Translations under genes and position numbers: made by a program
Assembly: GCA_009780275.1 (NCBI GenBank)
Contig: WRAI01000008.1
Location: 337 to 64,336 of the forward strand
From: Oscillospiraceae bacterium
GTDB lineage: Bacteria > Bacillota > Clostridia > Oscillospirales > UBA929
Direction: 5' to 3'
DNA: 64,000 nucleotides
The notes under the pieces: model-generated
The model's input: only the letters and a program-made list of their open reading frames with translations
Databases searched by the model: none
What the model was told of the DNA's origin: nothing
Shown: positions 3,001 to 12,565 of the stretch, piece after piece
Layout of the letters: each line of letters starts with the position of its first letter
Position numbering within the stretch: position 1 is the first letter of the stretch

Positions 3001-3676
3001 GACGTGCGTCAAGATCAAAGGTTTCACTGTGACGACCAACCAAAACAACTGTTGCCCCGCTGCGAACCTCTACTCTGCTGGCAGCGCCGACATTTCCTGT
3101 ATTGATATGGCTCGGGATGATGACATATGTAACTGTGTTTGCAGTCGCTGCCGCTGTAATTGCGTTCAGCACCCTTGTATAAATAGTGTTTGCCGGGGTA
3201 GGAGCAATCTCAACAATGCGATAGTTTGTTTCTCTGGCATACCAGATGCGCGGATCATCTATCTCTTCCTGTGTAAATAAGTCATGCACAGTCAGCGATG
3301 CTCGCAGAAGACCGGGTAGAGCCTCGTCCCGCGACTCTACAGAGAGGGCGTCTTCTATGGAACCATCGTGTCCTGCATCATTTTCATTACTTTCTTCGGT
3401 TTGCTTTCCATCTAGGTCATTTTTTTCAAGTTCCGTTTTACTTTCGACCTCTTCTTCACTAATTTCACTTTCTATGAACTCGCTTTCAACTTCGTCGCTC
3501 TCATATAACTCATAGTCGTCATGTATAGCATTATCGCTATCGTCGCTACTATTAATAATATTATCTCCATAGGTCGTACCTATAAAACTCACAAAAATGA
3601 GATTTATAGCCAAAAAAAGAGCCAGAACACTGAGCAAATAAAATCTTTTTTTTCTTTTTTCATTTGGGAAATACAT
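1..3676 (-). CDS. Very large secreted/cell-surface beta-helix repeat protein (Pmp/PbH1-like); N-terminus in window, C-terminus beyond position 1
   Basis: Manual translation of the minus strand from ATG at 3676 (RBS AAGGAG 6 nt upstream) stays open to position 1, so the ORF track does not list it. It has an N-terminal K-rich hydrophobic anchor (MYFPNEKRKKRFYLLSVLALFLAINLIFV), an acidic D/E/S tract, then dozens of ~25-30 aa repeats of the form NGGGV(F/Y)(V/I)..G..F.M.GG.I..N.A. Confidence 0.8.
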   Translation of the reverse strand, partial: MYFPNEKRKKRFYLLSVLALFLAINLIFVSFIGTTYGDNIINSSDDSDNAIHDDYELYESDEVESEFIESEISEEEVESKTELEKNDLDGKQTEESNENDAGHDGSIEDALSVESRDEALPGLLRASLTVHDLFTQEEIDDPRIWYARETNYRIVEIAPTPANTIYTRVLNAITAAATANTVTYVIIPSHINTGNVGAASRVEVRSGATVVLVGRHSETFDLDARLAAGEITQSEYDATLLQHRSYEPGQIVLTDTSTNATGHTRPFMVRSANNANNDAAHDDIGEPGNPNQFGLVIRNFVMQYRATAVGQGAPAVPPAPIDWDVTAIAGFSGGGVAIEPRAAGNTGGHFIMCRGAVIRNAATNNSGATDVQRGGRLTLMPGSLIHSNHAQAAGGAVHVRGAGALIMYGGTLRDNIARGAGGNNFAQTGVRGNGGAVNLGQDATMARFVMFDGVLEGNTARNAGGAINIGTDGSEHGQFIMYNGVIRNNRAIGTVIDASVDRTTTRSNGGAVSIRTGGTFTMHDGVISGNYAGLTVAADPGATGNLTATVVSNGGGVFAQGTNAIFNMYGGEISGNRAERVRVSNLSNVVAGNGGGVFVANGATFNMGSQSMQSTGVIRDNIATAAVTGHSAVTANNARNTSNGGGVFVSGANSTFNMNGGRVEGNAAIRVLNSSATGVDVFAGNGGGVYIANGGRGNMTNGLIIENQAAAAGSPFNFNLENGSANMANGGGVFVSGENSHFTMRNGRIESNHTENENIATGSTVAGNGGAVYAADGGTFTVEDGMIAENRATSTEASFQRGNGGGVFVRGGIVNLRGGHIVNHVVSRNGGGMFISRGTANVSDGVIVSGNHSETNGGGIAVECPAFADASTQASILNIADGGIVRDNTARSDGGGVWVSGAGSRFDMSGGVIEGNTSTDIEANGGGVYIGDDASATMSGGEICMNTAWNGGGMALDDGRFIMSGGTIEQNCAPMGGGVNMANATIFNMSGGRIRNNRHARTDPVTGAGTGTITEGSGVRVNGASSVFTMTGGIIGDENPDYGNRALRGGGVVVVNGARFVMEAGGTTTNPTSGRVVGNEAVGSTTEGNAQGGGIYVMQNSSFSGTVGSIADNTAGDGGGVFVPHTNLNLITIGQDFTFTGNMARNGLRIDTPIAVANPQVEPGTTTIEPWWEMDVSGNGVERKHAFTNHDINAEGPGIFRVKYNVRPSVTLINDGGDIDAYIGK

Positions 3677-3908
3677 TGAAACTTCTCCTTTCATTACATA
3701 ACGGATACATTTCAATTATACTTTTTTCATAGAGTAATACTACACCCAAAAGGATAAAAAATATCAAAAAAATCGCATCATCGACATTTCACTTGCAGCA
3801 TCTTCCGACAGCCAAACCTTGAAAAGCGGCACAGAATGCACACCATGCGACTTTTTTATTATAGTCTAGAGTCAAGTTTTCTACTGTCGACTCGTCTGCC
3901 AATTCTTC

Positions 3909-4004: not shown

Positions 4005-4081
4005 CGAGGTGTGGCTCAGCTTGGTAGAGCGCTGCGTTCGGGACGCAGAGGCCGCAGGTTCAAATCCTGTCACCTCGACCA
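4005..4081 (+). tRNA. tRNA-Pro (anticodon CGG), CCA encoded
   Basis: A cloverleaf can be drawn by hand: acceptor CGAGGTG/CACCTCG, D arm GCTC/GAGC, anticodon stem CTGCG/CGCAG with loop TTCGGGA, T arm GCAGG-TTCAAAT-CCTGT, then ACCA. Confidence 0.93.
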
Positions 4082-4082
4082 T
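4066..4082 (+). repeat. attL core (17 bp, overlaps tRNA-Pro 3' end)
   Basis: Identical to 12506-12522. Confidence 0.9.
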
Positions 4083-4133
4083 GATTCCCTCAACACGTTG
4101 CGACACAACGATTACGGCGATTACAGAACGCTC

Positions 4134-4154
4134 CGTAACACATTCGTAACACAT
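4134..4154 (+). repeat. Tandem CGTAACACAT motifs (11-bp phase), candidate arm-type recombinase sites at the left end
   Basis: CGTAACACAT at 4134-4143 and 4145-4154. The same motif recurs at 12359-12368, with a degenerate copy at 12370-12379 at the right end. Confidence 0.45.
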
Positions 4155-4177
4155 AAAAATCGATTGCTTGTACAACG

Positions 4178-4206
4178 AACGACACCTCAAATCGGGTGTC
4201 GTTTTT
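4178..4206 (+). terminator. Rho-independent terminator just inside attL
   Basis: AACGACACC / GGTGTCGTT 9-bp stem, 8-nt loop, T-run. Confidence 0.6.
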
Positions 4207-4489
4207 GTTTGTGTACATATGTTCGCATTGTGTGATGTCGATTGATTTCCCAATTGTCATTCGTGCATAAAATCACCCATTATATTATACCATTTTCGAT
4301 TTTAATTGCGTTCGCCATTGCACCCAATTCACACATCATCTACAACCGTCAAAATCAACCGCTAACTGATGAAAACAATGTTTGCAATGTCAACTATGCG
4401 TTCGATTGAAATGCTGTAAAACTGCGAATTTCTGTGTTATGCCGTGAATGCAAAAAATGAACCCATTACGGATTCATTTCATTGCATTA

Positions 4490-4753
4490 TCAAATATGGT
4501 ATTCGGTGTTGTCATGGTCAACATTTGAAATTAAATCATCAATTTTGACACCCAACACAATCGAAATTTTATATAACGTGCGAACTGACATTGTGAATTT
4601 ATCATTGTTGCTTTCAAGTCGTCTGATATAATCATGTGACAAATCAACGAGTTCAGATAATTCTGCCGCAGTCATTTTTATTTGTTTACGATAACGTTTG
4701 ATGTTTTTGCGAATGGTCAAATATATGTCATCATCGAAATCAAATGTACGCAT
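4490..4753 (-). CDS. XRE-family helix-turn-helix regulator (element repressor candidate)
   Basis: 87 aa with an HTH_3-like segment (MTAAELSELVDLSHDYIRRLESN). It is divergent from the cargo gene. Confidence 0.75.
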   Translation of the reverse strand: MRTFDFDDDIYLTIRKNIKRYRKQIKMTAAELSELVDLSHDYIRRLESNNDKFTMSVRTLYKISIVLGVKIDDLISNVDHDNTEYHI

Positions 4754-4905
4754 TGATTATCACCCCACGTTAATTGTACATAAATCAACAAAGGGTGTAT
4801 GTGACTGTGCAGGTCACAAAAATTTGACACACGCCCAAAATCATGTTACCATGTCATTGTCGAAATCGACAAAATATGTAAAAATGACAAGGAGAAACAC
4901 GATTT

Positions 4906-6657
4906 ATGAAAAAGCGGATTTTATCACTGGCACTTGCAATGTTGATGATGTTTTCATTGACAGGTGCGATGTTGACAACGGGGGCGAATGGTGCGATTTC
5001 AAGCATTACATATATTCCAAATCAAATTGCAAATTTCACGATTGAAAATATTGAATTATTTGGCGGACAAATTGATGAAGTCGCACAAGGACAATCGCAT
5101 ACAATTCGTGGAATTGCACCATTTATTCACAATGAAGGACACGAATTTTACGCATGGGGAATTCGTATGATGAACATGGAAACATTTCAATTTGAATGGA
5201 TTGAATTTTTTTATGAGGGTCAAGTCATCACGTTAGGGCAAGACGAATTTGCTGAACGTCATATGATAACAATAATGCCTGTATGGGTACCCGAAAATCA
5301 AAATCCGCCCGAATTAGCAAATGTTTGCACGATTACAGGTCAACTTCCATGTAATTGCGATGTTTTCGTTTGTGACGTTTGTGGTAGAGGTGATTGTGCT
5401 TGCTGTGATGATTGCAATGAATTTCCTTGCGTTTGCGAACCTGTTTTTTGTCCAGATTGCTATTGGAATCCATGTATTTGTGATGTCGAACGCACAGTAT
5501 GGGATTATGACGCAAGAGCAAACGCAAATTCATGGGCGAGAGATTACATAGAAACGGCATGGGATTTTAATATGCTGTCAAGTCGTGTATTGCAAAATAA
5601 CACATGGCAAGCAGGAATTTCACGTTTACACATTGCAGACATTGCTGCACGGTTTATCGAGCATTATACAAATATGACAATCAATGAATTCATTGATTCG
5701 CTTGACGATGATGATTTATACGAAATTCCCGATTTATATGACATTGCAAATTTGTATGAGTTTGATAGTGATGCGTATGCGATGGTTCGATTGGGCATTT
5801 TTCGGGGTTCGCAGTCATATCGTTGGACGGGTTTGCAATTTAGGGCAAATGATTTAATCACACGACAAGAAGCGTCAACATTATTGGGGCGTTTAGTTTC
5901 GTTATTTTGTGGTGCAATTCCGTCGAACATTACAAACGAACAATTGCCGTTTGAGGAAAATTTGCCGTCGTGGGCAAGAAATTATATTCATTTTTTGTAC
6001 AATCAGCAACCGACTCGAATAATGGGAAATACATGCTCACAGGGCGGATATTTATTTCGACCGTTGATGACATTTCCGACACAACAAATGACGATTGCCG
6101 TTGTACGGACATTGAATACATTGTGTGATTTCGGAAATTGTGAATGTGTAATTGACGTTGAACCGCAGACAAAAACAATTTATGTAATTCGTGAAACTTT
6201 TGGCACAACAAATACACAGGCATTTGAAAATTATCAAGCAATGCGGAATGTATTTGACAATGGAAATTTTGCGACATATACGGCGGTTGAGGTTACATGG
6301 CATAGTAGATTTACAGATAACAGCGGAAATTTTGTATTAGAGAATGTTTGGGTTGGTCAAGAAGTTTGGGGTTGGTTAGCAGGAAGTCATGTTTCGGCAG
6401 TTTGGAATGGCAACGAGGGTGCGAGTTTTGATAGGGGTTCAAAAATGGTAGGAGGAATTAGCAATGGGTGGGCAAGAAATAAAGCATTTGGAACAGAGCA
6501 AGCGTTATGGGATTTTATCGAAGGCGATGAAAATTGGGCACATGAAAATCGTTCAACAGGTTGGGGATTTAGAAAATTTTATTTAGTCAACGGTATATGG
6601 ACAACAGGCGATTCAACATGGAGTGGTTTTGATGGGGATTTGATTGTGAGTGCATAA
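4906..6657 (+). CDS. Secreted surface protein: signal peptide, Cys-rich module, three SLH-like repeats, Trp-rich C-terminal domain
   Basis: 583 aa. Signal peptide MKKRILSLALAMLMMFSLTGA. About 50 aa carry ~16 Cys (CNCDVFVCDVCGRGDCACCDDCNEFPCVCEPVFCPDCYWNPCICD). Three SLH-like segments are present (SWARDYIETAW...ISRLHIADIAARF; AMVRLGIFRG...ITRQEASTLLGRL; SWARNYIHFLY...). Confidence 0.65.
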   Translation: MKKRILSLALAMLMMFSLTGAMLTTGANGAISSITYIPNQIANFTIENIELFGGQIDEVAQGQSHTIRGIAPFIHNEGHEFYAWGIRMMNMETFQFEWIEFFYEGQVITLGQDEFAERHMITIMPVWVPENQNPPELANVCTITGQLPCNCDVFVCDVCGRGDCACCDDCNEFPCVCEPVFCPDCYWNPCICDVERTVWDYDARANANSWARDYIETAWDFNMLSSRVLQNNTWQAGISRLHIADIAARFIEHYTNMTINEFIDSLDDDDLYEIPDLYDIANLYEFDSDAYAMVRLGIFRGSQSYRWTGLQFRANDLITRQEASTLLGRLVSLFCGAIPSNITNEQLPFEENLPSWARNYIHFLYNQQPTRIMGNTCSQGGYLFRPLMTFPTQQMTIAVVRTLNTLCDFGNCECVIDVEPQTKTIYVIRETFGTTNTQAFENYQAMRNVFDNGNFATYTAVEVTWHSRFTDNSGNFVLENVWVGQEVWGWLAGSHVSAVWNGNEGASFDRGSKMVGGISNGWARNKAFGTEQALWDFIEGDENWAHENRSTGWGFRKFYLVNGIWTTGDSTWSGFDGDLIVSA

Positions 6658-6770
6658 TCACAACACGCACAATCCACAGTAGAACCGTTTAGTTCATATG
6701 TGAACATGATAACGTGTTGACGATGTGGATAATCGGTTAAACCGCAGAATTAGCGGTCACAATGATAAAT

Positions 6771-6808
6771 AAAAACGCAATGTCGATTTTGTCAACATTG
6801 CGTTTTTT
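6771..6808. terminator. Bidirectional hairpin terminator between convergent element genes
   Basis: AACGCAATGT / ACATTGCGTT 10-bp stem flanked by an A-run and a T-run. Confidence 0.65.
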
Positions 6809-6836
6809 GTGTTCAAAGGAAAATAAAATTTAATAA

Positions 6837-7199
6837 TTATGCAGATTTTTTGATTTCATACGTTTTGTTACAATGATTCATAAATTGATACATTGCATGA
6901 GTAACAATGTTCGTACAATGCACGATTGCAAAAAATATGTCATCATGCAAATCACCAACGTGTTTATTATGTTTTTGTTGATAGATTTCATCAGCGTGTT
7001 TCAATGCGTTTGCAATAATCGAATATGACAATTGATTGTGTTTTTCATTGTATGCAATTAAATCACACGTGCAACGAATGTCATTGCATTTTTCGTCATC
7101 ACGGTTTTTTGATTCGTGATACAATTTCATCATTTCGTTGATGTCGTTTTGCATTTGAGTTTGTGCAGATTTCGAGAGATTTTTGTTTGTATTATTCAT
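6837..7199 (-). CDS. Hypothetical protein (His/Cys-rich, 120 aa)
   Basis: Clean ORF with an upstream RBS region. No recognisable motif. Confidence 0.5.
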   Translation of the reverse strand: MNNTNKNLSKSAQTQMQNDINEMMKLYHESKNRDDEKCNDIRCTCDLIAYNEKHNQLSYSIIANALKHADEIYQQKHNKHVGDLHDDIFFAIVHCTNIVTHAMYQFMNHCNKTYEIKKSA

Positions 7200-7432
7200 T
7201 TGATAATACTCCTTTTTAATGTAAATTTCGTTGATTTCTCAACGATTTATTATGTATATATTATAACATAAAATCAAGCAAAAGTATATGATTTTTGAAA
7301 AGAAAAATAAAGTCGCAAACGCAGACAGCACAAGGTGTTCAGAGGGTCGAGAGGATTATTTTTCAGAAAGTTTTGATATTGTTTTTTGGTTCGCAAAATG
7401 CGGGCAAATTTTATTACAAAGAGGTATTAAAT

Positions 7433-7672
7433 ATGCAGGTGCAATTACAAGGAATTAGAGCATTAGATTTCAAATCAGACAATGGCGAAAATGTCAAAGG
7501 CACACAGTTATTTGTTACATACAATGATGAGAGTGTAAACGGTTTAATGACGGATAAAATTTTCGTCAAACAAGAAGTTCAAATTCCGCAAGGAATCAAA
7601 CAAAACGACATTTTGAATTTGATGTTCAATAACAAGGGAAAAGTCATCGCAATCAGTCAAGCGAAACAATAA
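7433..7672 (+). CDS. Hypothetical small protein (79 aa)
   Basis: ATG at 7433 follows AAAGAGG. The longer track ORF starting at 7295 lacks an RBS. A terminator hairpin follows at 7675-7706. Confidence 0.5.
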   Translation: MQVQLQGIRALDFKSDNGENVKGTQLFVTYNDESVNGLMTDKIFVKQEVQIPQGIKQNDILNLMFNNKGKVIAISQAKQ

Positions 7673-7722
7673 CGAAAAAATGGGCGATTTATTTCGCCCA
7701 TTAAATTTATGAGGAGCATTTT

Positions 7723-8232
7723 ATGAGCAACAAACAAATTAAACAAGTCAAGTTCGGCGCTGTCATTGGTTACATGATTATCATGTTCGCAGTATTTCGC
7801 AGATTTAGCGGTTTTCATATATTCGATGATGTTCGTATCGGAACATTGCCAATTATCGCATTACACGTCATTCTAACGGCGCTCGCTATCGTTGTATTGT
7901 TCGTTATGATTTATGTGTTCGCAACAAATCATTTCGCACGAAAAGCAATACAGGATAAAATCACAAATACGGCGTGTTTGAAAGAGATAACAACGGCAAA
8001 ATTGATTTCGTATAAATTATCAAATACGGATTACGTCACGTTGGCATTTCGTGCGGAGGGTGTTTCCAAAGATGTATGGGAATCGAAACGCAATGCGATT
8101 CAATCGGCAATCAATTATACAATCATTGGAGATATAGAATATTCAAAAAATTGTTGGTCGGTCGTTTATTTCAACGCACGAAAAGGACGGACAAAATCAA
8201 ATCAAGCGAGGTTAGTTGAGAATGATGTTTAA
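7723..8232 (+). CDS. Membrane protein (2-3 TM), probable anchor partner of the FtsK-like ATPase
   Basis: 169 aa with hydrophobic helices (FGAVIGYMIIMFAVF; LPIIALHVILTALAIVVLFVMIYVF). Its 3' end overlaps the next gene. Confidence 0.6.
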   Translation: MSNKQIKQVKFGAVIGYMIIMFAVFRRFSGFHIFDDVRIGTLPIIALHVILTALAIVVLFVMIYVFATNHFARKAIQDKITNTACLKEITTAKLISYKLSNTDYVTLAFRAEGVSKDVWESKRNAIQSAINYTIIGDIEYSKNCWSVVYFNARKGRTKSNQARLVENDV

Positions 8233-8965
8233 TGTTGGATATGATTTGCAAGCATGGAATGATTACAGCGAGAAAAAATACATTACGGCAGATATTTCAT
8301 CAAGCACAAATTCACAAACAGTCATTTGTGGCATGAGCGGAAGTGGTAAGTCATATTTTTTGAATCAGTTATTTGCAAAATTAGTCAAGGCAGAACCCAA
8401 CGGCGAATTTTATTTTGCAGATTTCAAAGGCGATGATTCATTTGCCCATTTAAGGGATTGCAAAAATTATTATTCGTACAAGAACACAATCAAAGCGTTA
8501 GACATTGTGCATGAGAAGTTACAGCAACGAATGAGCGGTATAGATAAATCAAGAAATCAAATAACGTTAATTTTTGATGAGTATGTAGCGAATATTTTAT
8601 CGTTGTTGAATGAATACAAGAAACACGCCCAAGCAGTAATGAATAAAGTATCAGAATTATTGATGATGGGTCGTTCAATGTGTGTTCGATTGATTGTTTC
8701 ATGCCAGCGTCCCGATGCCGCCGTTTTCAATTTTGGTTCAAGATTGAATTATGAAATTTGCATTATTTTAGGTAAGTTTAACAAATCAATTTATGATATG
8801 TTAATGCCGGAACACATCGACGCCGTCAAAATGAAAATTGACAATCATAATTTCGGTTGTGGCGAGGGTTCGTGCGTAATTGGTTCAGATTTGCATTTTA
8901 TCAAAGTTGGCGAAGTTGAAAACATGGAAAATATAAAGAGAATTTGCAAGCAAGCGTTATCATAA
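8222..8965 (+). CDS. FtsK/SpoIIIE (TcpA-like) DNA translocase ATPase domain protein
   Basis: Walker A GMSGSGKS, Walker B LIFDEY, and an FtsK-type LIVSCQRPD motif. The start is ambiguous between 8216 and 8225. Confidence 0.75.
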   Translation: MMFNVGYDLQAWNDYSEKKYITADISSSTNSQTVICGMSGSGKSYFLNQLFAKLVKAEPNGEFYFADFKGDDSFAHLRDCKNYYSYKNTIKALDIVHEKLQQRMSGIDKSRNQITLIFDEYVANILSLLNEYKKHAQAVMNKVSELLMMGRSMCVRLIVSCQRPDAAVFNFGSRLNYEICIILGKFNKSIYDMLMPEHIDAVKMKIDNHNFGCGEGSCVIGSDLHFIKVGEVENMENIKRICKQALS

Positions 8966-8984
8966 TTTTAGAAAACGATATTAT

Positions 8985-9016
8985 AACACGTTCAGATTTT
9001 GAGCGTGTTTTTTTGT
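8985..9016 (+). terminator. Terminator after the FtsK-like gene
   Basis: AACACG...CGTGTT stem followed by T7. Confidence 0.5.
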
Positions 9017-9119
9017 TGCGGTAGAACACAGAATTTTGCGGTTTAACAGATTGGTTCATGTGTTGTCATGGTTGTGTATTGATTGCGAAAATTAGCAAGT
9101 GTGCCGCAGATTTTCAGAT

Positions 9120-9260
9120 GTCACAATGTCACAGAGGTAATAAGAAATTATAGCGTTTTGGGGTTCGTCATGTTGTATAAAATGAGGGTCAAAAGTGGTT
9201 GAAGTTTGTGCAATTTGACGGACGATTTCGGGCGGTTTTTCGAGTTGAAATAGTATAATA
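9120..9260 (+). repeat. Copy A of a bipartite repeated module (GTCACA..GTCACAGAGGTAATAAGAAATTATA ... GGGCGGTTTTTCGAGTTGAAATAGTATAATA)
   Basis: Near-identical blocks recur at 10641-10671 and 10713-10743, so the module brackets rep. Confidence 0.7.
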
Positions 9261-9500
9261 GGAGTATATAAATAATCAAATTAAAGGAGAAAAATTTTTA
9301 TGGGATTTACATAACGATAAAAGATTTTGCGTGAGGGTACGCAAATCGTGCGAAGCGATTGAATTGGATTACTACATTCAATACATAGGTGTTTTGTGAC
9401 ACATTTAGAAAGTCACAGATATAAAGTTCACAAGTTCACATTGAAAACAATATGCACAATTTTATGTGCAAATAAAATAACGTAAAGGATACTATAAAAA

Positions 9501-10631
9501 ATGAGTAACAATAATTTTCCCAATGATTGCATGAACGAAATGCAAAACGAACGTGTACGCAGATTTTTTATCACAATAAATCATTCAGACGTGCGAGAAT
9601 GGACACATGATAAAATTCGTGATGTATGCGAGAAGTTTCCGACAATTAGATATTTTTGTTTTGCAGATGAAATCGGTAACGAAAGTAAGCGTTTACATTC
9701 GCATATATACATAGAATTAGACAACGCAATGCGGTTTAGTACAATGATTAACAATTTCAATGGGGGTCATGTGCAAAAAATACATGAATTTGGTACGGGA
9801 TTTGATTGTCGTAATTACATACGTAAAGATGGTAGGCATTTTGATAAACATGACACAGTTGTTGAAAATACGTTTTATGAATGGGGGCAAGTTCCGCAAG
9901 ACAAATCACAAGGCAAACGCAACGATTGGAGCGATGCACGAACAATGTTAAATGATGGTTTTGATGTTGATAGTATTATTGATACGTTTCCTCATTTAAT
10001 GCGTTATCGTAATATATTAGAAAATGAAATGTTGCATATGAAATCAAGGGGCAGGCAAATGAAAGGTCGTGCGTATGTAACATATATTCAAGGTCGCACG
10101 AATTTGGGTAAAACAACATGGGTATTTGATGAATATGGCGATGATGAAGTATGCAACATTATTGATTACGAAAACAAAAATCAAATATTCGATAGTTATA
10201 TGGGCGAAAGGGTTTTGTTATTAGACGAGTTCGATTCAAGCATTACATATTCGATTTTGAATGGGTACATTGACAGGCGAAAAGTAAAATTGAGTGCGAG
10301 GTATCACAAAAGAACGGTGTGTTATGAAAAAATATACATCGTATCGAATTTGCCGTTAGAAAAACAATATGAAAAATTGAAAAAAGACAATCGTGCATTT
10401 TACGACACGTTCATTCGCAGAATTGATAAAGTTATGGTTTACACAGATTTTTGCAAATTCAACGAATACACGACAAGTGAATATTTTGAGTTGTTAGAAC
10501 ACGACAAATCAATCAATGGTTTTGCGACGAGTGAAAGTAAGAAACAAACGGGATTTTGTAGTATATGTGGCGAATTTGATTGTATGGGCGATAATTGCGA
10601 CGATTTATGGGGCGAGGATTTAGCGAGTTAG
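9501..10631 (+). CDS. rep: Rolling-circle replication initiator with HUH endonuclease + SF3 helicase architecture (CRESS-DNA-virus/pCRESS-like Rep)
   Basis: Motif I RFFITINH, motif II HSHIYIEL, motif III NYIRKDG (YxxK), Walker A GRTNLGKTT, Walker B VLLLDEFD, motif C YIVSN. There is a C-terminal Cys cluster CSICGEFDCMGDNC. Confidence 0.75.
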   Translation: MSNNNFPNDCMNEMQNERVRRFFITINHSDVREWTHDKIRDVCEKFPTIRYFCFADEIGNESKRLHSHIYIELDNAMRFSTMINNFNGGHVQKIHEFGTGFDCRNYIRKDGRHFDKHDTVVENTFYEWGQVPQDKSQGKRNDWSDARTMLNDGFDVDSIIDTFPHLMRYRNILENEMLHMKSRGRQMKGRAYVTYIQGRTNLGKTTWVFDEYGDDEVCNIIDYENKNQIFDSYMGERVLLLDEFDSSITYSILNGYIDRRKVKLSARYHKRTVCYEKIYIVSNLPLEKQYEKLKKDNRAFYDTFIRRIDKVMVYTDFCKFNEYTTSEYFELLEHDKSINGFATSESKKQTGFCSICGEFDCMGDNCDDLWGEDLAS

Positions 10632-10640
10632 GTTTGGTTA

Positions 10641-10743
10641 GTCACAGTCACAGAAGTAATAAGAAATTATACAAGAAACGGATTCGACTTCGGTCGGGTT
10701 CGTTTTTTATTTGGGCGGTTTTTCAAGTCAGAATAGTATAATA
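10641..10743 (+). repeat. Copy B of the bipartite repeated module; contains the rep terminator
   Basis: GTCACAGTCACAGAAGTAATAAGAAATTATA at 10641-10671 and GGGCGGTTTTTCAAGTCAGAATAGTATAATA at 10713-10743. A hairpin plus T-run lies at 10677-10708. Confidence 0.7.
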
Positions 10744-10780
10744 AATGTATAAAATAAACAAAAAAGGAAGTACATTTAAT

Positions 10781-11074
10781 ATGATGGAAAAACGCATGAA
10801 TATTCCGCAAACAACGAGTATTGAAAACGCATTACATATTTATTATCGTCATGCAGAATTAGGCAACAAAGAGATAACAATTTTATTCGGGCAGCGTTCC
10901 CCGAACACGTTGTCGAAATTGAAAAAGATTGCAAAGGACGAAATGCGAGAACGTGAAATGATGTCGTTTGGTTCAAACACGGTCAACACGGTTGTTGCGT
11001 TTGAAGTTTGGGGTATTGACGTTAAGGATTTAGAGCATCGCATGAAAAAGATTAAACAGTTGAAATTAGCGTAA
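10781..11074 (+). CDS. Small putative DNA-binding protein upstream of int (excisionase/regulator candidate)
   Basis: 97 aa from ATG 10781 (RBS AAGGAAG). The call rests on its position immediately 5' of the integrase and an HTH-like stretch (NKEITILFGQRSPNTLSKLKKIA). Function is inferred only. Confidence 0.4.
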   Translation: MMEKRMNIPQTTSIENALHIYYRHAELGNKEITILFGQRSPNTLSKLKKIAKDEMREREMMSFGSNTVNTVVAFEVWGIDVKDLEHRMKKIKQLKLA

Positions 11075-11112
11075 ATAAAAATATGATGATGTTGATTGCT
11101 TGTAAATGGGTG

Positions 11113-11140
11113 TTGACACTACTTTTCAATGTGTTATAAT
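11113..11140 (+). promoter_or_regulatory. Promoter for int (TTGACA-16 nt-TGTTATAAT, extended -10)
   Basis: TTGACA at 11113-11118 and TATAAT at 11135-11140, preceded by TGT. Confidence 0.55.
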
Positions 11141-11177
11141 TCGTTCACAAGCAATCGACAGGAAAGGATAAAAAAAT

Positions 11178-12353
11178 ATGTCGATTAAAAAGATTACAGG
11201 CAAATCAAAAGACGGTTTGCAAAAGTATCATGTTCGTGTAAATTTCATGTGCAACAGAACAGGCAAATATAAGCAGTTCACAAAAATTGCGTATGGGTTA
11301 GAAAATGCAAAAGAATTAGAAATTCAGTTGCAAAAACAAAAAAATGAACATGATATAGATTCAAAAATGACGATTCAGCAGTTATTTGATGAATACATGG
11401 CAAAGAAACGGTTTGAAATTCGTGAATCAACATGGGATACCCATAAGCGACAATATGAAAATCATGTTCAGTCGATTTTAGGCAATATACGAATTAGCAA
11501 GTTGACAACGCAGATTTTGCAGGATTGGAAAACACAAATTGAATCAAAAGGAATGGCGTTGAAAACAAAACAGCATATGTACGGTAATTTACGAGCGTTG
11601 TTAAATTATGCGGTCAAAATGCAGTACATCAATCAGAATTTATTGTTGATTGTCGGCAATTTCAAAGATGCAATGTACACGAAACAGGAAGTTGATTTTT
11701 ACACGTCGGACGAATTTTTGCAGTTTATTGAAGTTGCGAAAGCACAAGCAATAAAACACGAGCGAGAAAATCACGATTGGTCGGAGTATGAGTATTATGT
11801 ATTTTTCAATATTGCGTTTTATTGTGGTTTGCGAAAAAGTGAAATTCATGGGTTGCAATGGAGTGATATTTGTGGTAATATGTTAAGTGTTCGGCGTTCG
11901 ATTCAACAGAAAATCAAAAATGTTGATATTGTGCAACCCCCTAAAACAAAATCGTCATATCGTACAATGCAAATGCCACAAGCATTGATTGACATTTTGA
12001 ACGAACACAAGAAACGCAAACAGCAATTACACAATTTCAGCGATGACAATTTCATTTTAGGCGTTGAGCGTTCATTGCGTAATAGTTCAGTTGCAAATCG
12101 AAATAGTTTATATGCGGAATTGGCACAGTTAAAGCACATACGCATACATGATTTCAGACATTCTCATGCTTCTGTTTTATGCAATGCAAATGTGAATATT
12201 CAGCAAGTTTCAAAACGAATGGGTCATGCACGAGTTGAGGAAACACGGAACACATATTCGCACTTATATCCTCGTGATGTTGAAATTGCCGTTGATGTAT
12301 TTAACAAAATCGACAATGCGAACAAGCGTCCTCGATTGTACGAAATCGCATGA
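11178..12353 (+). CDS. int: Tyrosine site-specific integrase
   Basis: 391 aa with an N-terminal SAM-like domain. The C-terminal catalytic pattern includes GLRKSE, HDFRHSHAS and a terminal Y (NTYSHLY). It lies next to attR. Confidence 0.88.
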   Translation: MSIKKITGKSKDGLQKYHVRVNFMCNRTGKYKQFTKIAYGLENAKELEIQLQKQKNEHDIDSKMTIQQLFDEYMAKKRFEIRESTWDTHKRQYENHVQSILGNIRISKLTTQILQDWKTQIESKGMALKTKQHMYGNLRALLNYAVKMQYINQNLLLIVGNFKDAMYTKQEVDFYTSDEFLQFIEVAKAQAIKHERENHDWSEYEYYVFFNIAFYCGLRKSEIHGLQWSDICGNMLSVRRSIQQKIKNVDIVQPPKTKSSYRTMQMPQALIDILNEHKKRKQQLHNFSDDNFILGVERSLRNSSVANRNSLYAELAQLKHIRIHDFRHSHASVLCNANVNIQQVSKRMGHARVEETRNTYSHLYPRDVEIAVDVFNKIDNANKRPRLYEIA

Positions 12354-12505
12354 CGAAACGTAACACATTTTTAACACAATATTGTGAAATTGTTGCGAAT
12401 ATCAAAATATTGCGAAATAGGCAAAATGCGTGAACACATTGATATGAATAGGTTATAATAGGTTTGGGTGATTGGCGAATATATTAAAATTGTTTGCAAA
12501 TTCGA

Positions 12506-12522
12506 CCTGTCACCTCGACCAT
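12506..12522 (+). repeat. attR core (17 bp)
   Basis: Identical to the tRNA 3' end at 4066-4082. Confidence 0.9.
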
Positions 12523-12565
12523 TAGTCTTAATGAGTCTGTATCCCTAGTTACCTCTGTTGCCAAC

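Follow-up and report, generated by a model that had tools for sequence, protein, structure and literature searches.

The Rep and its integrated element

The stretch of DNA analysed here (the window) comprises 64,000 nt of an Oscillospiraceae bacterium (assembly GCA_009780275.1, contig WRAI01000008.1, positions 337-64,336, + strand), and within it positions 4066-12527 very probably represent an integrative mobilizable element (IME) or 'integrated plasmid' of approximately 8.4 kb, of the pCRESS2 / IME-class-7 kind. Its initiator gene, rep, and the features that define the element are the following.

9501-10631, + strand: rep, 376 aa, ATG start; predicted HUH nuclease domain (residues ~19-112), linker/oligomerisation region, SF3 helicase domain (~190-325) and Cys-rich acidic tail (~330-376)
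4005-4081, + strand: tRNA-Pro (anticodon CGG), the integration target (ARAGORN; Rfam tRNA 67.4 bits)
4066-4087, unstranded: attL, a direct repeat over the tRNA 3' end, CCTGTCACCTCGACCATGATTC, with 20/22 identity to the attR copy
12506-12527, unstranded: attR, the 22-nt direct-repeat partner of attL
7723-8232, + strand: membrane open reading frame (ORF), 169 aa, the probable N-terminal transmembrane part of a coupling protein (hydrophobic segments in the sequence)
8216-8965, + strand: FtsK/TcpA-like P-loop ATPase, 249 aa (Pfam FtsK_SpoIIIE, E 2.1e-5)
11178-12353, + strand: tyrosine integrase, 391 aa (Pfam Phage_integrase, E 2.9e-17, plus SAM-like N-terminal domains)

The 376-aa rep product was described in an earlier note on this DNA, made without database searches, as a Rep of the CRESS-virus type, and the six motifs listed there are all present in the translation, namely FFITINH (residues 22-28), HSHIYIEL (66-73), NYIRKDG (105-111), GRTNLGKTT (198-206), VLLLDEFD (238-245) and IVSN (280-283). 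The databases already list an identical sequence, as a hypothetical protein, from an Oscillospiraceae metagenome-assembled genome (MAG). A word-indexed protein search with the window Rep returned four homologues only (33-42% identity), and in the alignment of these five sequences the residues H66, Y106, K109, G203, K204, E243, N283 and the arginine-finger residue R267 are invariant. Searched alone, the window Rep matched the Pfam families RNA_helicase (E 0.0021) and Viral_Rep (E 0.019) with both scores under the cut-off, gave only a chance-level match in PHROGs (E 0.37) and none in NCBIfam, and matched the helicase part of the porcine circovirus 2 (PCV2) Rep (7lar) at E 6e-5. The profile built from all five sequences aligned over residues 14-287 with 7lar, in both domains (E 6.5e-19), matched the redondovirus Rep as well, and recovered the isolated PCV2 nuclease domains 2hw0, 5xor, 8h56 and 6wdz at E 1.8e-7 to 1.3e-6. 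In the profile alignment the HxH of motif II falls on the HLQ of PCV2, and Tyr106 on the tyrosine of YCSK. Moreover, four of the five family members pass the Pfam thresholds for Viral_Rep and RNA_helicase. An AlphaFold model made from the five sequences was poor, with a predicted local distance difference test (pLDDT) score of 60, and served solely for a fold match of the helicase domain; the top matches of this low-confidence model were the redondovirus Rep double hexamer 9pqq_A, which had the best E-value, and the PCV2 Rep ATPase 8xms (template-modelling score 0.66 on the target). These comparisons argue that the N-terminal domain is an HUH nuclease and that the Walker motifs belong to an SF3 helicase, as had been proposed, and no profile search placed the former in a non-HUH family or the latter in another kind of ATPase. 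We regard the protein as almost certainly a pCRESS2-type HUH-SF3 initiator.

Nine groups of bacterial pCRESS Reps have been defined (Kazlauskas, Varsani, Koonin & Krupovic 2019, PMC6668415). By the motif criteria of that study the window Rep would fall in pCRESS2, since its motif III (NYIRKDG) reads YIRK and not the YLxH of pCRESS4-8, its motif II HSH (residues 66-68) is not the HUQ of pCRESS3, and its motif C IVSN has the Asn that is absent from pCRESS1. Six reference Reps were transcribed from the supplementary alignment of the same study, and BLASTP of the window Rep ranked the pCRESS2 references best (30% identity, E 3e-35), followed by pCRESS3 and then pCRESS1. The phylogeny that had been suggested was carried out for the bacterial side: a neighbour-joining tree of 38 family members and the six references, which is rough and unsupported (no bootstrap, no viral Reps, few references), groups the window Rep in the cluster that holds both pCRESS2 references; pCRESS3 is the sister of this cluster, and pCRESS1 forms the outgroup. 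The Walker B of the window Rep (LLLDEF) has Asp-Glu in place of the Glu-Glu given as a pCRESS2 trait, and this motif varies within the pCRESS2-reference cluster (FEEF in P0003 and P0004, DEF in P0002 and P0005). At its C-terminus the window Rep has an extension that its relatives do not have (10488-10628, residues ~330-376), which ends in the acidic DDLWGEDLAS and contains a CxxC-x4-C-x4-C pattern that could form a small zinc-binding knuckle.

The integration at a tRNA gene that the earlier note had read from the sequence is borne out, as the 22-nt att repeats, 20/22 identical, lie at the 3' end of tRNA-Pro(CGG) and 8.4 kb downstream, and the element has its own tyrosine integrase. The FtsK-like translocase proposed there is present as an ATPase domain (8216-8965) and is not full-length; the membrane part is the separate ORF 7723-8232. 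Thus the coupling protein appears as two overlapping ORFs, and the same is seen at 3598-4089/4022-4840 of L001, a locus in another Oscillospiraceae genome; because the frame relation is the same in both elements, the split is not a sequencing error or a recent frameshift. L001 is the closest syntenic relative of the window element and has the same gene order, with identities of 58% for the helix-turn-helix (HTH) regulator, 56% for the small ORF, 37% for the membrane ORF, which is arranged alike, 62% for the ATPase, 43% for the Rep, 54% for the 109-aa ORF and 52% for the integrase. No tRNA was found at the border of the L001 element, and its Rep (P0002) has HRN instead of the HUH motif. A homologue of the FtsK-like gene lies directly upstream of rep in 17 of 79 related loci, and anywhere in the locus in 22 of them. 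The combination of integrase and FtsK-like gene, which had been singled out as special, is a published architecture (PMC6668415, PMC5357655).

A virus-type origin across the Rep family

To test the proposed origin by comparison, DNA upstream of rep was taken from related loci, in a first scan as 73 regions with equally long control regions and then as a full set of 108 loci, all those for which the upstream sequence was long enough. The 9-mer AGTATTACC occurs in 63 of the 73 upstream regions and in 0 of the control regions, and the circovirus/nanovirus nonanucleotide TAGTATTAC in 42 of the 73. Across the full set AGTATTAC is found on the rep strand upstream of rep in 97/108 loci; 88 of these 97 sites sit between perfectly complementary arms (median 10 bp), with a loop of 10-11 nt in 81 of the 88. 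The sequence of the arms varies by locus while their complementarity is kept, and in the 79 loci from genomes it mostly precedes the start codon by 44-170 nt, counted from the nonamer. After the 3' arm come (c)TTC and then two copies of a 6-7-nt repeat, the pair beginning 0-6 nt past the stem, and this repeat is element-specific (TGTCGCA, TGTGACA, GTAGCA, TGTGTCA or TGTACA); L002:1689-1743, L033:5859-5913 and L051:5466-5520 are examples. Stems were counted directly, as RNAalifold on a MAFFT alignment of 60 origins returned no consensus structure, MAFFT having placed all gaps in one arm. About 90% of the related bacterial loci have nAGTATTAC in a stem-loop with two iterons behind it, which is the circovirus layout. 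We found no statement of such a family-wide virus-type origin in the text or supplements of PMC6668415 or in the other literature that could be searched.

Two further features of these regions bear on the window. The heptamer GCGAAGC forms a very stable DNA mini-hairpin. It is present upstream of rep in 19/73 relatives vs 0 control regions, lies within 80 nt before the origin in 17/60 loci, and its positions cluster near -65 and -25 from the nonamer. Moreover, at L037 (~3230-3260), and similarly in the related L036 and L039, a canonical AGTATTAC with a 10-bp stem and iterons is found on the opposite strand, 55 nt upstream of rep, so the orientation of the origin relative to rep can flip in this family, and strand is no absolute objection to a candidate.

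A candidate nick site upstream of the window rep

Between the FtsK-like gene and rep, the following features were found in the window.

9358-9382, + strand: candidate origin or nick hairpin, 7-bp stem and 11-nt loop TGGATTACTAC (geometry scan, folding and comparison with relatives)
9326-9356, + strand: auxiliary GC hairpin TTTGCGT-GAGGGT-ACGCAAA at 9326-9345, then GCGAAGC at 9350-9356 (-6.4 kcal/mol, z -5.4)
9395-9440, unstranded: iteron cluster with TGTGAC (+) at 9395-9400, GTCACAG at 9412-9418 and two copies of AGTTCACA at 9425-9440 (repeat search)

The hairpin is formed by the arms ATTGAAT (9358-9364) and ATTCAAT (9376-9382) around the loop at 9365-9375. It had been noticed earlier as an AT stem-loop, and is real, with a stem one pair longer than had been given; the repeats GTCACAG and AGTTCACA are as described. 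Folded as single-stranded DNA it has an energy of -2.9 kcal/mol (z = -4.1 vs shuffles). It lies on the rep strand, 134 nt ahead of the start codon, and its loop ends in TAC; its position, its strand and its loop length of 11 nt agree with the origin of the relatives, and as in the relatives it is preceded by a GC hairpin and GCGAAGC, with TGTGAC repeats after it. We scanned the 64 kb on both strands for perfect stems of at least 7 bp with a loop of 10-12 nt that matches TAGTATTAC in at least 6/9 positions in the register of the relatives, and this hairpin was the sole match, with 0.34 expected from block shuffles, which by simple arithmetic from that figure per 64 kb corresponds to ~0.0014 for one strand of the intergenic region upstream of rep. 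Within the element it is also, on either strand, the sole hairpin with at least 6/8 identity to AGTATTAC in its loop. A 7/9 match to TAGTATTAC taken alone is at chance level, with 137 sites in the window vs 124 +/- 10.5 expected.

The loop TGGATTACTAC agrees with the nonamer at 6/9 positions in register and at 7/9 when shifted by 3 nt. Read from the 3' arm it gives GATTACT/AC, where the T/AC cut site is kept together with the -4T/+1A pair, a Watson-Crick pair that Reps require (Smiley et al. 2022, PMC9973303). In the alternative register GGATTAC (6/7 to GTATTAC) the nonamer has three additional bases behind it; the Rep of L113 (P0010) is of the same small clade as the window Rep, and the canonical stem-loop on the rep strand of that locus has the loop GAGTAAGTATTACATA, similarly with three extra bases after ...TATTAC.

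Several observations speak against this hairpin as the origin, and against the wider assignment to which it belongs. No copy of AGTATTAC was found within 700 nt upstream of the window rep, so that the window is one of few such loci in the family, and the loop fits this nearly invariant sequence at only 5/8 positions (counted from the stem) or 6/8 (in the GGATTAC register); the 'ATTAC core' to which the earlier note had pointed is therefore a weak argument by itself, the loop departing from AGTATTAC at 2-3 positions. The two possible registers imply different cut sites. The stem is short and A/T-rich, and its folding energy compares with -5 to -10 kcal/mol in the relatives. The first TGTGAC begins 13 nt past the stem and does not abut it, and most of the repeats are inverted or are the variant GTTCACA. 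A comparable hairpin was not found in L001. The criteria of the scan were set after the hairpin had been seen, which makes the expectation given above indicative only. Outside the hairpin, the window Rep alone stays below the Pfam thresholds (PF02407 15.7 bits vs 26), and the FtsK_SpoIIIE match of ORF 8216-8965 is marginal (24.5 bits vs a cut-off of 24). Of the CRESS-type origin that had been suggested here, the position, the strand and the 11-nt loop correspond to those of the relatives, the loop sequence agrees with the nonanucleotide in part, and abutting iterons are absent. Weighing both sides, we consider the hairpin to be probably a diverged, degenerate version of the virus-type origin of the relatives, and we lean, by a small step only, towards its being the nick site itself.

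Two other sequences were tried as origins and rejected. An exact TAGTATTAC at 3734-3742 (- strand) lies outside the att sites and has no inverted repeat or iterons, and ~0.5 such hits are expected by chance in 128 kb; it sits in a promoter-like region ~270 nt from the tRNA gene. The sequence TAGTATAAT, found at 9251-9259 and 10734-10742, is the -10-like part of a promoter-like repeat, and its L001 counterpart reads GGGATAAT.

Stemless origin-like modules flank rep

A second kind of origin-like sequence, read on the strand opposite to rep, occurs as direct copies on both sides of the gene, at a distance of 1,519 nt from each other.

9120-9152, - strand: stemless module copy 1, TATAATTTCTTATTAC-C-TCTGTGACA-T-TGTGACA (direct repeat, family-type iteron pair, L001 homologues)
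10641-10671, - strand: stemless module copy 2, TATAATTTCTTATTAC-T-TCTGTGAC-TGTGAC, 10 nt past the rep stop (direct repeat)

Each of the window modules has a 7/9 version of the nonanucleotide, TCTTATTAC, with the TATTAC core intact and an iteron pair at once after it, and 24 of 25 positions are identical in the direct repeat 9128-9152 / 10647-10671. Over the whole window TGTGAC/GTCACA occurs about as often as expected (31 sites vs 32); six of the 31 lie in the ~0.4 kb of non-coding DNA around rep, where ~0.2 would be expected by arithmetic, and four of these six are the two pairs inside the 25-nt repeat. L001 has four modules, at 2914-2946, 4929-4961, 5513-5545 and 7013-7045, one after each of four consecutive transcription units, in which TATTATTAC (8/9) is followed by 8 nt and then TTCTGTGAC-G-TGTGTCAC; between the window modules and those of L001 only a 33-nt core is conserved. 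None of the six copies, two in the window and four in L001, has an inverted repeat around the nonamer. We considered whether modules flanking rep are a general trait of the family and rejected this, as among 113 loci only the window and L001 have them. The modules may serve in regulation, as additional sites to which Rep binds, or may be nicked as alternatives to the hairpin. In L001 an extra ORF with a Zn-ribbon and an HTH_23 domain (5031-5408) is inserted between two modules upstream of rep.

Proposed mechanism and alternatives

The explanation that we favour, and hold to be likely as a whole, is that of a pCRESS2/IME-class-7 element whose Rep nicks the hairpin at 9358-9382. The integrase would excise the element as a circle, possibly assisted by the 109-aa ORF at 10745-11074, and Rep would bind the TGTGAC-type repeats, extrude or melt the hairpin and cut the + strand in the loop through Tyr106. 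The likeliest cut would be at T9373/A9374, because this is the canonical T/AC position when loops are aligned from the stem and because it keeps the -4T/+1A pair, with T9370/A9371 as the alternative under the GGATTAC alignment. The covalent Rep-DNA complex might then prime rolling-circle replication of this circle, for which the SF3 domain would unwind the DNA, or alternatively or additionally might be passed to the FtsK/TcpA-like ATPase for transfer via the mating pore of a helper conjugative element. We infer the steps of excision, nicking, replication and transfer from circovirus Rep biochemistry and from the precedent of ICEBs1 NicK.

Of the competing explanations, the one that survives best, although we consider it unlikely, is that the stemless modules are the working sites of Rep. 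In that case Rep would act on the opposite strand at 9120-9152 and 10641-10671 (TCTTATTAC then TCTGTGAC-TGTGAC), nicking TCTTATT/AC in melted DNA, and the hairpin would be a decayed relic or a structure of the 5' untranslated region (5' UTR). The modules do have the exact iteron arrangement of the family, (c)TTCTGTGAC-n-TGTGACA, beside a 7/9 nonamer, with a TATTAC core that is better than the loop of the hairpin and with the -4T/+1A pair retained; their 33-nt core is the sole part that the window and L001 have conserved, and L001, with its four copies of TATTATTAC, has no stem-loop origin. An origin inverted relative to rep is moreover known in the family from L037. However, an inverted repeat surrounds the nonamer in 88 of 97 relatives and in none of the six module copies, the modules lie on the strand opposite to the origin of ~90% of relatives, and several origins per element would split the replicon into sub-circles. 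Their placement, after stops or terminators and before promoters, fits regulation equally well, and L001, with HRN for HUH in its Rep, may itself be decaying.

More doubtful is the possibility that the replication and transfer module is in decay, with the canonical origin lost, leaving a fixed or purely integrase-driven island in which Rep is kept only for a time or for another role, such as regulation through the repeats. The window is indeed without the AGTATTAC that is present in 97/108 relatives, its hairpin is weak, its coupling-protein gene is split, and just two Reps come near the window Rep, at 40-43% identity, with no close relative in the metagenome contig scan. Such decay would not be expected to leave the 376-codon rep intact with all its catalytic and ATPase residues conserved, the att repeats 20/22 identical, the integrase intact behind a perfect promoter, and the repeats around rep highly structured and not eroded; moreover L001 shows the same split of the FtsK-like gene, so that a recent frameshift is not the cause.

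Slightly less probable still is a reading in which the modules, which stand one at the end of each transcription unit in the window as in L001, are working nick-and-join sites of Rep, with initiation at one and termination at the next, that release single transcription units as small circles. For the window, one product might be a circle of 1,519 nt with rep only (9137-10656), which would resemble an alphasatellite or a rolling-circle transposon. If true, this would give a Rep-driven way to amplify or exchange gene cassettes, and a plausible intermediate stage linking integrated plasmids with small Rep-only replicons.

Finally, an integrated, prophage-like CRESS-type virus, which the circovirus-like Rep and the presence of family members among the 'viral' contigs of IMG/VR might suggest, was rejected as extremely improbable for want of a capsid candidate: no ORF of the element matches a capsid or virion family in Pfam, PHROGs gives nothing for the Rep, the small circular IMG/VR contigs of the family code for Rep only, no homologue of a known viral structural protein is found in any pCRESS element (PMC6668415), and the element has conjugation-type (FtsK/TcpA) and integration genes instead.

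Relation to known systems

Outside pCRESS7 and pCRESS9, 97.5% of pCRESS Reps sit in site-specifically integrated chromosomal elements, and those of pCRESS1-3, -5 and -8 are mostly found in tRNA genes beside a tyrosine integrase, with FtsK-like ATPases and single-stranded DNA-binding proteins (SSBs) common to them (PMC6668415). The window element resembles pCRESS2, a group of the p4M-like cluster (pCRESS1-3), in its HUH plus SF3 Rep without YLxH, with HUH and not HUQ and with the Asn of motif C, and likewise in its clostridial host, tRNA integration with att repeats, tyrosine integrase, FtsK-like ATPase, an ORF in the position of the SSB and the absence of a capsid gene. It differs in that its Rep is only ~30% identical to the two references tested, has Asp-Glu (LLLDEFD) in Walker B and not the stated Glu-Glu, and carries a 45-residue Cys-rich acidic C-terminal tail, and in that its canonical origin is degenerate while stemless origin-like modules flank rep.

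A class of IMEs in streptococci is defined by a Rel_PF02407 relaxase, a tyrosine integrase and, encoded upstream of the relaxase, a TcpA (FtsK-related) coupling protein (Coluzzi et al. 2017, PMC5357655). The window element shares with this IME_Class_7 the three signature genes, a tcpA-like gene directly upstream of the Rep-like gene, the small size, and the absence of mating-pore genes from its nine ORFs. Unlike that class it is found in Oscillospiraceae and not in Streptococcus, its coupling protein is divided between two ORFs, one for the membrane part and a short one for the ATPase, and its Rep passes PF02407 at the level of the family and not alone. The likeness is one of gene content, mobilisation being presumed for both.

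Compared with the circovirus/nanovirus system (PCV2 Rep; nonanucleotide TAGTATTAC), the domain order and catalytic motifs are alike, and in the relatives of the window element the identical nonanucleotide lies in a stem-loop, with tandem repeats after it on the Rep-sense strand, as in PCV2. The window element differs from such a virus of 1-2 kb in being a bacterial, integrated, capsid-less element of ~8 kb, and in its loop TGGATTACTAC, which stands against the viral ..TAGTATTAC. Similar to the MobT/NicK relaxases of ICEBs1, Tn916 and ICESt3, it combines a rolling-circle-type initiator with an FtsK-related ATPase encoded immediately upstream; the nuclease of those elements is Rep_trans (PF02486) without a fused helicase, and they have their own type IV secretion system. 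In ICEBs1, according to the summary in PMC5357655, a single protein acts in replication of the excised element as well as in transfer. Rep-only mini-plasmids, namely the IMG/VR contigs L105, L107 and L109 and the two-gene pRGRH0065 cited in PMC6668415, share the Rep family (31-33% identity), and unlike the window element are free circles of 2.2-2.6 kb without an integrase or FtsK-like gene.

Abundance of the family and what it adds

The earlier note had called bacterial homologues of such Reps rare. In fact an exhaustive profile search gave 840 representatives of half-identity clusters when the limit was E<1e-30, and 9,518 with E<1e-10, while two short peptide patterns recovered 238 loci in species-representative genomes, almost all from Clostridia and Erysipelotrichia, and a further 32 family loci were found in IMG/VR. 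The metagenome contig scan found no close relative of the window Rep, the single locus detected having 31% identity. Members of the family occur on circular contigs in IMG/VR, as L105 (2645 nt), L107 (2270 nt) and L109 (2358 nt) are assembled as circles, judging from their terminal direct repeats of 77-127 nt. The ORFs listed for L107 and L109 are the family Rep plus at most one small ORF, and the three contigs seem to be free mini-replicons with Rep only and without a capsid gene that were classified as viral. Rep homologues were also seen on short contigs of L052, a Methanobacteriota MAG, and L004, a Desulfovibrio piger assembly, with all other hosts belonging to Bacillota; binning errors or real transfer are both possible for these two. 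At L048 (~5520-5900) an array of clustered regularly interspaced short palindromic repeats (CRISPR), with the repeat GTATTCCCCGCGTGAGCGGGGGTGATCC, lies directly upstream of the rep homologue.

Considering these numbers, the window element is a divergent addition to a class that was already described in 2017-2019 and is abundant. It adds a member to the integrated plasmids and IMEs whose Rep is the presumed ancestor of the CRESS-virus Reps, and the residual interest lies mostly in two by-products, the family-wide circovirus-type origin and the stemless modules of the sub-lineage of the window and L001. The first, if indeed unreported, would carry the plasmid-to-virus scenario beyond the protein to the DNA on which it acts, and supplies dozens of natural Rep/iteron pairs for studies of specificity and for HUH-tag engineering. 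The second, a pair of elements in which the stem-loop is degenerate or lost and stemless nonamer-iteron modules have multiplied, offers a test case for which parts of an origin a Rep needs.

Other features of the element

The remaining features of the element are these.

4490-4753, - strand: XRE-type HTH regulator, 87 aa (Pfam HTH_3, E 2.6e-10; L001 homologue in the same position)
4906-6657, + strand: cargo ORF, 583 aa, with an N-terminal signal-like segment and Cys-rich stretches (no Pfam match)
7295-7672, + strand: small ORF in the place of the DUF961-like SSB of pCRESS elements (56% identity over 98 aa in L001)
8985-9009, + strand: terminator-like hairpin and T run after the FtsK-like gene (hairpin scan)
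9227-9280, + strand: promoter-like block copy 1 (GGGCGGTTTTTC...AATAGTATAAT), upstream of rep, 76% identity to 10710-10763
10710-10763, + strand: promoter-like block copy 2 (direct repeat), upstream of the 109-aa ORF
10745-11074, + strand: 109-aa ORF located between rep and int; its position alone suggests an excisionase or regulator (L001 ORF in the same position)

Searches of Pfam, PHROGs, NCBIfam and PDB sequences gave nothing usable for the ORFs at 4906-6657, 6837-7199, 7295-7672, 7723-8232 and 10745-11074, and the SSB label of 7295-7672, which has no Pfam or PDB sequence match, follows from its position only (PMC6668415 supplement). No mating-pore genes are among the nine ORFs of the element, type IV secretion genes elsewhere in the window not having been screened for, and Rfam gave no known RNA family around rep. 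The cargo ORF is not present in L001, where a different ORF occupies its place. The promoter-like blocks were not detected by a consensus promoter scan, and their role as promoters is presumed; ahead of the integrase, in turn, lies a consensus sigma-70 promoter (11113-11140) with a 12/12 match. The stretch 9284-9314, upstream of three hairpins and rep, has a strong ribosome-binding site (AAAGGAG) and after it an ORF of four codons (MGFT, stop); it might encode a leader peptide or belong to a structured 5' UTR.

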